Shown here in pieces: positions 18,632 to 22,167 of a stretch of DNA of 64,000 nucleotides. A program made the translations under genes and the position numbers. Source of the DNA: Escherichia coli (GTDB taxonomy: Bacteria > Pseudomonadota > Gammaproteobacteria > Enterobacterales > Enterobacteriaceae); the NCBI RefSeq assembly GCF_044324785.1, contig NZ_CP172127.1; one strand, written 5' to 3'. The notes beneath the pieces were generated by a model, which saw only the letters and a list, made by a program, of their open reading frames with translations, was not told the DNA's origin and made no database searches. The first letter of the stretch is position 1; each line of letters opens with the position of its first letter.

Positions 18632-19453
18632 ATGATGCATAGGTTGAATCTCAATGGCTATGAACCCGACCGACACCATGAAGCCGCGGTCGCATTTTGT
18701 ATTCACGCCGGAACGGATGAGTTAACCAGTCCTGTACATCAGCACCGCAAAGGGCAGCTGATACTGGCGCTACATGGTGCAATTACCTGTACGGTGGAAA
18801 ATGCTTTGTGGATGGTGCCGCCGCAATATGCGGTTTGGATACCGGGAGGGGTGGAACATAGCAATCAAGTGACAGCTAACGCTGAACTCTGTTTTCTGTT
18901 TATCGAACCCAGCGCAGTGACAATGCCGACAACCTGTTGCACATTGAAAATATCGCCCTTATGCCGGGAATTAATTTTAACCCTGGCAAACAGGACGACG
19001 ACTCAGCGTGCTGAGCCGATGACCCGCAGATTAATTCAGGTCCTGTTTGATGAACTCCCTCAGCAGCCACAACAACAGCTGCACCTACCCGTTTCTTCTC
19101 ATCCTAAAATTCGCGCGATGGTGGAGATGATGGCGAAAGAGCCCGTCGAGTGGGGGTCATTGGGGCAATGGGCTCGCTTTTTTGCGATGAGTGAACGCAA
19201 TCTTGCCCGACTGATAGTGAAAGAGACGGGGTTGAGTTTTCGCCAGTGGCGTCAGCAGTTACAGCTGATTATGGCGCTTCAGGGATTAGTGAAAGGCGAT
19301 ACTGTACAGAAAGTTGCTCATACGCTGGGGTATGATTCAACAACGGCCTTTATTACTATGTTTAAGAAAGGCCTGGGGCAAACGCCAGGCCGATATATTG
19401 CGGGATTAACTACTGTTTCCCCACAATCAGCGAAACCAGACCCGCGGCAATAA
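18632..19453 (+). CDS. nimR: AraC-family transcriptional regulator NimR (YeaM)
   Basis: 273 aa; cupin-like N-terminus and C-terminal AraC HTH ([23 protein letters not shown]). Confidence 0.85.
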
Positions 19454-19856
19454 GCGGGCCAACCGGTACGCCGCGAAACAGCGCCACGCCCAAAACAGTG
19501 CCCACCAGCAGCCCGGCGACCAGTTGCGGCTGGCTGCCCATTAACGTCACGCCGCGCCCACCTAGCCAGGAGACAATAACGCCTACTGCAATTGCCACCA
19601 GCGATTTCCAGTTCAGAAACGAGTGAATCAGGGTTGAGGGCGGTAGCGTCCCGCTGGCGATGGGGGCCATAACGCCAATCGTCAGAATGATTATCCCGAT
19701 ACTTAGCCCCTGTTTTTCAATCCACGGGAAAAAGGTGCTTAACGGTGTGACGCGGACAATGATTAACACCAGAATTGAAACGGCGACAGTGGTGTTATGA
19801 CTGATAAAGCCCAGCGCAGCTAACCCGAGCAGGATCAGCAAAGTGACATCAAACAT
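19410..19856 (-). CDS. yeaL: DUF441 inner-membrane protein YeaL
   Basis: 148-aa hydrophobic ORF; its 3' end overlaps the nimR 3' end by 44 nt. Confidence 0.8.
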
Positions 19857-20025
19857 CGTGGTTTCCTTGCCAAAGAATAATAAGCCTGCTTACTTTACGC
19901 TTGCTGCAGGAAGGAAGTAGAAAATCTTTACGTTTTTTGCATAAAAAATCAGGCGAACTGTCATCAAACTGCCATTTGCGCACGCTAACAATAACGTGAA
20001 AACAGCTATCTCCCGGGGGCATACT

Positions 20026-20130
20026 ATGAACGATCAAATGTTCGTCGAGACTCTGATTATCACGTCATCGTTTTTTGCCATTGCTGTTGTGCTGGTTTTG
20101 TCCGTTCTTCTTATCGAACGGACAGGCTAG
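20026..20130 (+). CDS. yoaI: small membrane protein YoaI (34 aa)
   Basis: Direct reading gives [34 protein letters not shown] then TAG; stop codon abuts the yeaK stop. Confidence 0.75.
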
Positions 20131-20634
20131 TTACGCAGTGCGGCGGAAATTGACCAGTTCTGGTTGCGCAATGCGCAAATAATCCGCGGTTTTCAAAATA
20201 ACGGATTTATCCAGCATGCCTGCATTGAAGGCGATTTCATCAAATCGTTCGAAGAGTAGGGGATCGGCAACCAGTTTGAGTTTTGGATGGAAGCTGAAAG
20301 GGGGGATCGCGCCGAAGACACAGCCTGTGAGTTCATCGACTTCCGCCGGGCTGGCCAACGAAGCGCGTAATCCGCCTATATGGCTGGCGAGTTGGCTCAG
20401 ATCGGCCTGTTGATCGGCAGCGAGGATCGCCAGAACATGTTGATTTACACCATTGCCTTTGACTTTACATACCAGTGCCTTAGCCCCCTGGCCTAAAGCG
20501 GTGCCACGAATTTCTGACACCGCTTCACATTTACCTACCGCTTCATGGGTAACGACGCGGAAGTCAGCACCTTCTTGTGATAATAAAGCGATTAACCGCT
20601 GATGCGTCACGCTTCCTTTAGCCATTTCAGTCAT
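20131..20634 (-). CDS. yeaK: YbaK/ProX-type aminoacyl-tRNA deacylase YeaK
   Basis: 167-aa ORF MTEMAKGSVTHQRLIALLSQEGADFRVVTHEA. Confidence 0.8.
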   Translation of the reverse strand: MTEMAKGSVTHQRLIALLSQEGADFRVVTHEAVGKCEAVSEIRGTALGQGAKALVCKVKGNGVNQHVLAILAADQQADLSQLASHIGGLRASLASPAEVDELTGCVFGAIPPFSFHPKLKLVADPLLFERFDEIAFNAGMLDKSVILKTADYLRIAQPELVNFRRTA

Positions 20635-20676
20635 TTCATGCTCCTGAGATTACAAGCAAACAACCACAGAAGGTTA

Positions 20677-22167
20677 TCATGAACGGCTGTTTTTGTTCTG
20701 CTTATTGACATATAAACGCTCATCGGAAGCTTTATACGCATCATGTAACGTATCGTTTTCTTTCATCGCGTAAATACCGGAAGAGAAGCCGATCTCTTTC
20801 TGCGGCGCGATATGTTGCAGACGTTTTTCGATACGTTCAGGCAGTTGTGCTGCAATTTGCGGCGTTGAATCGACAAGAATGATGCAGAATTCATCGCCAC
20901 CGAGTCGGATGGCATAATCACTTTTACGAATCGACTGTTTAATCGCCTGCGCTAATAACGTAATCGCTAAATCCCCCTCCTGATGACCGAGGGTGTCATT
21001 TATTTGCTTTAACTTGTCCATGTCAATTGCAATAAACATCACCGAAGAACCGGATTGCACCAGTTTCTGCAACCGCTGCTCCAGTTCAGGGGTTAAAATT
21101 TTGCGATTATACAGTCCAGTCATCGCATCACTAATATTTTCTCGCGACACATTTTGGTATAAACGGAAGTGCATCCGGACCATATTCAACAAAATTAATG
21201 CCGTCAAAATCCAGAACAGAACGCTTTTCCACGAAGACGTGATAAAGTAAAGAATATCAATGGATAACGAGACACGAATGCCGCCCGGTAAGTCATGGAC
21301 GTAACTGACATACTGGAACAGATTATCTTCGCTCTGGTTGATGATAATGTCGCGCCCCGAATCGGTATCGGTTAGCGTGACATTGAGAAAACGCCAGAGG
21401 AGAGGGCGGTCATGAGTGTAAAAGATATTCCGCAGATTGTTTTTGTTAATATCCAGCAGCACAATCCCTTTTAGCTGCCCTGCGACATATACCGGCGTCA
21501 GCAAACTCATCACGTTCTGTTTAGTACGCTGATCCTGGTAAATGCTCGATAATACGGTACGCCCGGTAAATACCTTTTCAATATCTTTGCGATCGATGCC
21601 AATACTTCCTGACTGCAGGAAAGACCAGTTATTCATCGCAAAGTACTCAACATTAACCGGCTCATAAAAATAGACATAGCGGTCATTGAGATCGAGATAA
21701 TAGTGAAATTTCTCTTCGGCCATCCCAAGACCTGAACCGTAATCATCCTGGTGGCGGTTGCCTTCCACTGCCTGATCAAAAGCGGGTAATAGTGCAGCAG
21801 CTTCCACAATTGTGTCGCAGTCAGTGGATGCGGTTTGTAGTGTGCCGCGTAAGCCCGGGTATTTATGGGCAGTCAGGTTTAAGCCATGGGTATTATTGGC
21901 AGACTCAAAAGCCTCGCAGATGGCGCGCCGCTGTTCTGGCGACACTTCCGACTGCTCAGCAGCGAGAGCGCGCATCACATGCGCGGCAATACTCTGATTC
22001 TGATACTTATCATAAAGAAAGGAGGAGTCTGCTCTCTGCACGATATAGCGCAGATAGGCACTCATTGCTCTGTCGCTGGCGACAAGTTCAAAAATAAGGA
22101 AGGAAGATGTCAGCACAATGACACTTGCGGCGATAAAATGCCGGAGCATTCTATGGTGCAATTTCAT
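20677..22167 (-). CDS. dgcJ: membrane diguanylate cyclase DgcJ (YeaJ)
   Basis: GGDEF motif RLGGDEF; two TM segments flanking a periplasmic sensor region; conserved start MKLHHRMLRHF at ATG 22167 (track ORF extended by 60 codons). Confidence 0.85.
   Translation of the reverse strand: MKLHHRMLRHFIAASVIVLTSSFLIFELVASDRAMSAYLRYIVQRADSSFLYDKYQNQSIAAHVMRALAAEQSEVSPEQRRAICEAFESANNTHGLNLTAHKYPGLRGTLQTASTDCDTIVEAAALLPAFDQAVEGNRHQDDYGSGLGMAEEKFHYYLDLNDRYVYFYEPVNVEYFAMNNWSFLQSGSIGIDRKDIEKVFTGRTVLSSIYQDQRTKQNVMSLLTPVYVAGQLKGIVLLDINKNNLRNIFYTHDRPLLWRFLNVTLTDTDSGRDIIINQSEDNLFQYVSYVHDLPGGIRVSLSIDILYFITSSWKSVLFWILTALILLNMVRMHFRLYQNVSRENISDAMTGLYNRKILTPELEQRLQKLVQSGSSVMFIAIDMDKLKQINDTLGHQEGDLAITLLAQAIKQSIRKSDYAIRLGGDEFCIILVDSTPQIAAQLPERIEKRLQHIAPQKEIGFSSGIYAMKENDTLHDAYKASDERLYVNKQNKNSRS

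Follow-up and report, generated by a model that had tools for sequence, protein, structure and literature searches.

Neighbouring genes on opposite strands whose 3′ untranslated regions (UTRs) overlap are described as convergent excludons, and the Escherichia coli pair yoaI/yeaK is like them in its convergence, in its transcript overlap, in an RNase III-type duplex and in being listed among them. Where excludons show mutual exclusion, however, this pair shows a 1.7-fold decrease in yeaK RNA that is borderline and possibly indirect. Tail-to-tail overlaps of four nucleotides (CTAG or TTAG) are a second close relative, and the same gene pair has them in several other genera; in Escherichia, by contrast, the two stop codons abut without a common base, so either open reading frame (ORF) can be deleted without touching the coding sequence of the other. 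Bidirectional intrinsic terminators share with yoaI/yeaK the presence of one strong hairpin at a convergent junction, but here the hairpin lies inside an ORF and is not followed by a U-tract, and published coverage shows read-through. In noncontiguous operons an opposite-strand gene is nested between co-transcribed genes, as Saenz-Lahoya and colleagues are said to have reported in 2019 for menE-menC/ytkD of S. aureus. The position of yoaI, on the opposite strand between the same-strand genes yeaK and yeaL, is alike, and read-through over yoaI is supported; yeaK and yeaL are nevertheless parted by a region of Rho termination, with yeaL RNA about 10 times lower. The three noncontiguous operons that ExcludonFinder lists for E. 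coli do not include yeaK-yoaI-yeaL (NAR 2025, PMC12288877).

The locus was analyzed within a 64-kb window of an E. coli chromosome that is reversed relative to MG1655, such that an MG1655 coordinate equals 1894208 minus the window coordinate. On the plus strand, yoaI occupies positions 20026–20130 (ATG at 20026–20028, TAG at 20128–20130) and encodes a 34-aa single-pass small membrane protein. On the minus strand, yeaK occupies positions 20131–20634 and encodes a 167-aa mischarged aminoacyl-tRNA deacylase, its TAA stop reading as plus-strand TTA at 20131–20133. The letters at the junction are GGC TAG followed directly by TTA CGC, leaving a spacer of 0 nt; with a gap of exactly 0 and no shared nucleotide, the two are not overlapping coding sequences. 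Downstream of yeaK on the same strand is yeaL (19410–19856; DUF441), and yoaI with its promoter fills the space between yeaK and yeaL. YoaI matches the NCBIfam equivalog NF041475 ("small membrane protein YoaI") over residues 1–34 of 34 with 79.8 bits (cutoff 45), and the Pfam tRNA_edit (aminoacyl-tRNA editing) domain is present in YeaK (E=3e-27). Because conservation across genera starts at M-N-D, we take the ATG at 20026, rather than the in-frame GTG upstream at 19996, as the yoaI start. A sequence-only reading of this DNA had proposed a 34-aa membrane protein gene whose TAG abuts the convergent yeaK stop, and the sequence, its ORFs and the MG1655 RefSeq annotation, in which yeaK (1873574–1874077) and yoaI (1874078–1874182) are likewise separated by a gap of 0, all bear this out. 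Both genes are annotated at the locus in 5411 of 5426 complete E. coli genomes.

A gap of this size is not unusual locally. The MG1655 stretch that matches the window holds 10 convergent pairs with gaps of -44, -35, 0, 8, 21, 47, 53, 58, 92 and 116 nt, and in half of these two separate terminators would not fit. The idea that the zero gap is a statistical oddity was therefore rejected, since the local spread of convergent gaps shows it to be no more than chance. The pair next door, yeaL (minus strand) and nimR (yeaM, plus strand), is more extreme, with coding sequences that overlap by 44 bp (19410–19453), and it too is in the convergent excludon list of ExcludonFinder (NAR 2025, PMC12288877). 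At another convergent pair of the window, nudG/ynjH, the coding overlap is 35 bp (about 52311–52345; MG1655 1841863–1841897), and this pair is also in the published excludon list. The yoaI/yeaK arrangement is thus correctly described but ordinary; practically all E. coli genomes carry it in their annotation, and its overlap has already been catalogued.

To place the junction in the family, we compared 80 yeaK loci from species representatives across Enterobacteriaceae. A YoaI-like ORF was found in 40 of the 80, in every case (40/40) convergent with yeaK and at a stop-to-stop gap of -4 to +30 nt. The two stops abut (gap 0) in the window, in all six other Escherichia lineages and in Cedecea, and the gap is -4, with a common CTAG or TTAG, in eight loci of other genera, the taxa with this 4-nt overlap including Salmonella diarizonae and arizonae, Trabulsiella, Yokenella, a Pluralibacter MAG and Enterobacter sp. 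BIGb0383; another 13 loci, chiefly Enterobacter and Lelliottia, have gaps of 20–22 nt. In 67 of the 80 loci yeaK and yeaL are adjacent on one strand. The spacer between them measures 249–328 nt where yoaI is present (one locus excepted, at 1184 nt) and 60–186 nt where it is absent, apart from four long-spacer loci (246–324 nt); yoaI, with its promoter, thus takes up the interval between yeaK and yeaL and sits directly against yeaK. A search of the long-spacer loci without a match (Kluyvera and others) for a divergent YoaI-like ORF found none. Among the taxa that lack yoaI and have the 60–186-nt spacer are the Citrobacter freundii group, Klebsiella, Raoultella, Atlantibacter and Pseudocitrobacter. 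This patchy distribution implies several losses of yoaI, or its gain, within a conserved yeaK-yeaL pair. In Enterobacter quasihormaechei (L052) the YoaI-like C-terminal part stands alone, about 20 nt past the end of yeaK, ending ASVLLLENG before the stop and missing the MND N-terminus; it is probably a decayed yoaI. In E. coli strain A30 (NZ_CP092500.1; L084, 1–330), an IS5 insertion leaves approximately the last 27 nt of yoaI and an intact yeaK; this locus is a natural yoaI knockout in which the yeaK 3′ UTR has been replaced as well.

Transcription of yoaI is driven from a Pho box (PhoB binding site) at 19959–19976 on the plus strand, which is an exact and unique match to the published site TGTCATCAAACTGCCATT. 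The gene is strongly PhoB-dependent, with RNA values of 12,266 in wild type and 28 in ΔphoB (mBio 2023, PMC10294691). A Shine–Dalgarno-like GGGGG at 20015–20019 (plus strand), 7–11 nt 5′ of the ATG, is the putative ribosome-binding site as read from the sequence. In the same leader K-12 differs from the window by one base, at 20024 (GCATGC versus GCATAC). No sigma-70 consensus promoter was found by consensus scan on either strand of 19300–21000.

The sequence-only reading had also held that the junction leaves no room for separate terminators, and this was upheld: a consensus scan detected nothing terminator-like close to the junction on either strand, nor within about 600 nt on the relevant strands, and the sole local hairpin is without a U-tract. 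That hairpin (20099–20124), whose inverted repeats (TGTCCGTTC/GAACGGACA) pair perfectly over 9 bp around a loop of 8 nt, can form on both strands, is GC-rich and stands between convergent genes, though inside the last codons of the yoaI ORF, beginning 7 nt beyond the yeaK stop codon. Its predicted folding energy is -23.6 kcal/mol (z -3.9) on the plus (yoaI) strand and -15.7 kcal/mol (z -3.8) on the minus (yeaK) strand. The letters after the stem are GGCUAGUUACGC on the plus strand and AAAACCAGCAC on the minus strand, a U-tract on neither; in view of this and of the empty scan, a terminator at the junction was rejected, whether intrinsic or bidirectional. E. coli, E. albertii and the MOD1 lineage all keep the same stem core, and their SNPs fall in the loop; at 20124 K-12 has a different Thr codon from the window (ACC versus ACA), giving a stem of 8 bp instead of 9. 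Outside these three groups a conserved RNA structure in the 3′ codons of yoaI was rejected, as a codon-anchored alignment shows that the synonymous sites that form the stem (Ser3, Val3 and the Arg codon) vary freely across genera. Over the 53 nt from the yeaK stop codon, the mean folding z was -0.9 in loci with yoaI, -0.2 in those without and +0.4 in the control, and it is in E. coli, E. albertii and the MOD1 lineage alone that the junction folds strongly. A search for known RNA families gave just one sub-threshold Rfam match, to JUMPstart in antisense yeaL (19621–19650, plus strand; 21.5 bits against a gathering score of 35, E=0.11), which is most likely chance.

A different junction is found in Enterobacter-type loci, where a GC-rich hairpin, GGCTGAC...GTCAGCC, lies in the roughly 20-nt spacer between yeaK and yoaI (L035 and, similarly, L031, L038, L049, L051 and L065). 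In Enterobacter wuhouensis (L035, 1173–1201) the scan calls this spacer hairpin terminator-like. It includes the TGA stop of yoaI and is followed on the yeaK strand by a U-run that the last yoaI codons encode, and it looks like an intrinsic terminator for yeaK, of a kind that E. coli does not have. From these differences at the junction, the mode in which the yeaK transcript ends would differ between genera. For yoaI, none of its loci leaves room for a terminator of its own.

Published transcriptomes show that the transcripts of the pair overlap. ExcludonFinder places yeaK-yoaI among 165 convergent excludons, each present in at least half of 58 MG1655 transcriptomes, on the criterion that coverage beyond each gene boundary exceeds 50% of the gene mean, a criterion that a zero-gap pair satisfies almost automatically, as coverage must persist just a few nucleotides past each stop; its authors state that convergent pairs could not be validated with dsRNA data (NAR 2025, PMC12288877). 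Strand-specific counts are more direct. In wild-type cells, Table S1c of Huang et al. (mBio 2020, PMC7373196) gives 45.36 sense and 3.28 antisense RPM for yeaK and 2.35 sense and 13.36 antisense RPM for yoaI. Per nucleotide, yeaK-strand RNA has a density of 0.090 RPM in yeaK (504 nt) and 0.127 RPM across yoaI (105 nt), so it spans all of yoaI without an evident drop; in two rnc mutants from the same data, the density antisense to yoaI was 55–81% of the sense density in yeaK. As these densities match and no promoter-like site is found on this strand, read-through is favoured over an independent start, and we infer that the antisense RNA over yoaI is yeaK read-through.

The two RNAs have also been captured together. 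Table S3 of Huang et al. (PMC7373196) contains a perfect duplex bound in vivo by p19, with strands CGGGGGCAUGCUAUGAACGAUC (yoaI sense, 210 reads) and UCGUUCAUAGCAUGCCCCCGGG (yeaK strand, 166 reads). Converted from U00096.2 coordinates, it maps to 20012–20035 as a 22-bp RNase III-type duplex with 2-nt 3′ overhangs, formed by yoaI mRNA and yeaK-strand RNA over the Shine–Dalgarno sequence and start codon of yoaI; the single K-12 difference in the leader falls inside this site. Per nucleotide, p19-captured dsRNA is about 6–10 times more abundant over yoaI than over yeaK (PMC7373196, Table S1b). Adjacent opposite-strand genes arranged tail to tail and, from these published data, overlapping transcripts and an RNase III-processed duplex are thus all present at the locus, as in convergent excludons.

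Downstream, the yeaK-sense transcript meets a region of Rho termination, classed as "antisense yoaI" with a Rho score of 2.8 (p=1e-5), whose peak lies at 19983 on the minus strand (MG1655 1874225, plus strand; Adams et al., eLife 2021, PMC7815308, Supplementary file 2). The peak comes 148 nt after the yeaK stop codon and 43 nt past the yoaI ATG, a coarse position since scoring was done in 800-nt windows. The tables of Adams et al. (PMC7815308) hold no discrete Term-seq 3′ end in the locus, by gene name or by coordinate, and the SMRT-Cappable-seq supplements have no entry for these genes among full-length transcripts. That yeaL RNA is about 10 times less abundant than yeaK RNA (PMC10294691, PMC7373196) is consistent with termination ahead of yeaL.

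For the opposite direction, the antisense reads on yeaK in the data of Huang et al. (PMC7373196; LB, where yoaI is barely expressed) amount by our calculation to about 100–150 nt at the density of yoaI sense RNA, which supports an overlap with the 3′ end of yeaK. For about 280 nt past the yoaI stop the RNA is rich in G and shows no evident site for early Rho loading; a C-rich/G-poor stretch first appears 287–430 nt into antisense yeaK and, judged by composition, is where Rho may load. The earlier claim that the two 3′ UTRs are fully antisense to each other's coding regions therefore holds in one direction: three independent published datasets place the yeaK 3′ UTR across all of yoaI, whereas on the yoaI side a partial overlap of yeaK is indicated in LB and "fully" is unsupported.

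How strongly one gene affects the other can be gauged from the directional ScriptSeq libraries of the PhoB regulon study (PMC10294691). Under phosphate limitation, wild-type cells had yoaI RNA values of 11,755 and 12,778 and ΔphoB cells 32 and 23; for yeaK RNA the values were 389 and 413 in wild type and 709 and 655 in ΔphoB. With PhoB active, yoaI is thus up about 440-fold (8.8 log2) and yeaK down 1.7-fold (log2 -0.8, q=0.0115), a change that by its q value and its size below 2-fold misses the authors' own cut-offs; dgcJ/yeaJ, the gene upstream, shows no significant change (log2 +0.4). By our calculation, induced yoaI RNA exceeds yeaK RNA about 150-fold per nucleotide. The yeaK decrease could be an indirect effect, as many growth-related genes shift similarly in that table. 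Nor does loss of RNase III raise yeaK sense RNA, which goes from 45 RPM to 33 and 15 RPM in rnc mutants (PMC7373196). The prediction that yoaI induction lowers yeaK thus came out right in direction, but the effect is small, borderline and below the authors' cut-offs. Given the 1.7-fold size, the missed thresholds, the similar shifts elsewhere and the rnc data, a strong mutually exclusive switch is unsupported, and the reciprocal effect on expression looks weak, at most small.

The best explanation, and one we hold to be quite probable together with its read-through, Rho and RNase III steps, is tolerated genome compaction with mild transcriptional or RNA interference and no dedicated switch. 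In this model yoaI is a PhoB-activated gene placed on the opposite strand inside the spacer of the conserved same-strand neighbours yeaK and yeaL. With an intrinsic terminator for neither gene at the junction, the yeaK-strand transcript would run over the whole of yoaI until Rho stops it near the yoaI promoter, before yeaL; yoaI transcripts would enter the 3′ part of yeaK, where Rho probably ends them too. Wherever both RNAs exist they would pair, and RNase III would cut the duplex. Of these elements, the overlap, the duplex and the Rho region are demonstrated in published work.

Against this model stand several readings of the same evidence. If the overlap were a functional excludon, a selected switch in which PhoB-driven yoaI and yeaK repress each other substantially by polymerase collision and RNase III, one would expect the catalogue entry and the RNase III-type duplex captured at yoaI, and the fall of yeaK under active PhoB with dgcJ/yeaJ unchanged would suggest an effect local to the 3′ end; packing within 30 nt is, moreover, kept in all 40 yoaI-bearing loci. 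We nevertheless consider such a switch unlikely, because the effect on yeaK is small and below threshold despite the large excess of yoaI RNA, yeaK sense RNA is no higher in rnc mutants, half of the yeaK loci are without yoaI, and the terminator-like hairpin that yeaK has for itself in Enterobacter means that the overlap of yeaK RNA with yoaI is not conserved. Another improbable reading concerns the yeaK-strand RNA over yoaI, which could be a separate antisense RNA, or an extended 5′ leader of yeaL, that starts in yoaI or in the 3′ end of yeaK. A yeaL promoter must indeed sit on that strand between 19857 and about 20130, and the wild-type density is slightly higher over yoaI than in yeaK; on the other hand, the scan finds no promoter-like site on that strand, the density over yoaI is similar to that in yeaK in three strains and about 12 times that of yeaL, and the Rho region sits between yoaI and yeaL.

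The hairpin at 20099–20124 invites yet another reading, in which it serves both genes as a common bidirectional 3′-end element, a terminator or a block to exonucleases, and mature transcripts overlap by just about 30 nt. It is strong, statistically unusual (z about -3.8 on both strands) and placed exactly at the junction, and in E. coli and E. albertii its stem core is invariant while synonymous sites of the loop are variable. After trimming by exonucleases, Rho-terminated mRNAs are reported to have their 3′ ends set by stable hairpins (Dar and Sorek 2018). Even so, we regard this reading as very improbable: neither strand has a U-tract after the stem and no Term-seq 3′ end is reported there, yeaK-strand coverage continues undiminished across yoaI, and the duplex was captured about 65 nt past the hairpin. 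The synonymous stem positions are also free to vary outside E. coli and its closest relatives, and on yoaI mRNA the stem is inside an ORF, where ribosomes would unwind it. Tolerated compaction with mild interference thus remains the reading we prefer.

A more specific role for the overlap was considered because the captured duplex covers the Shine–Dalgarno sequence and start codon of yoaI and because an effect of Mg2+ on YoaI is unexplained: under low Mg2+, YoaI rises post-transcriptionally and independently of PhoQ (bioRxiv 10.1101/2024.09.13.612970). The Rho-terminated yeaK 3′ UTR might act as a cis-antisense regulator of YoaI synthesis by pairing with these elements, which could explain the rise, although we think this very doubtful. 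The Mg2+ dependence persists in a chromosomal yoaI-SPA strain (bioRxiv 10.1101/2024.09.13.612970), which argues against it; by the standard design of such strains, the SPA tag and its cassette should separate yoaI from yeaK. If it were true, yeaK transcription, Rho termination or RNase III activity would set YoaI translation, the rise of YoaI on Mg2+ starvation could follow from this and feed into EnvZ-OmpR signalling, and the locus would be a compact case of a 3′ UTR controlling a neighbouring gene in cis.

As a discovery the arrangement carries little weight, being annotated and its overlap being in published catalogues; its consequences are practical. Knocking out yoaI, tagging its C terminus or inserting a resistance cassette substitutes other sequence for the natural yeaK 3′ UTR, and yeaK mRNA could change as a result. 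Altered yeaK transcription, in turn, also alters the antisense RNA over the yoaI ribosome-binding site. Studies of YoaI as a connector between PhoR-PhoB and EnvZ-OmpR should therefore control for the overlap with yeaK.
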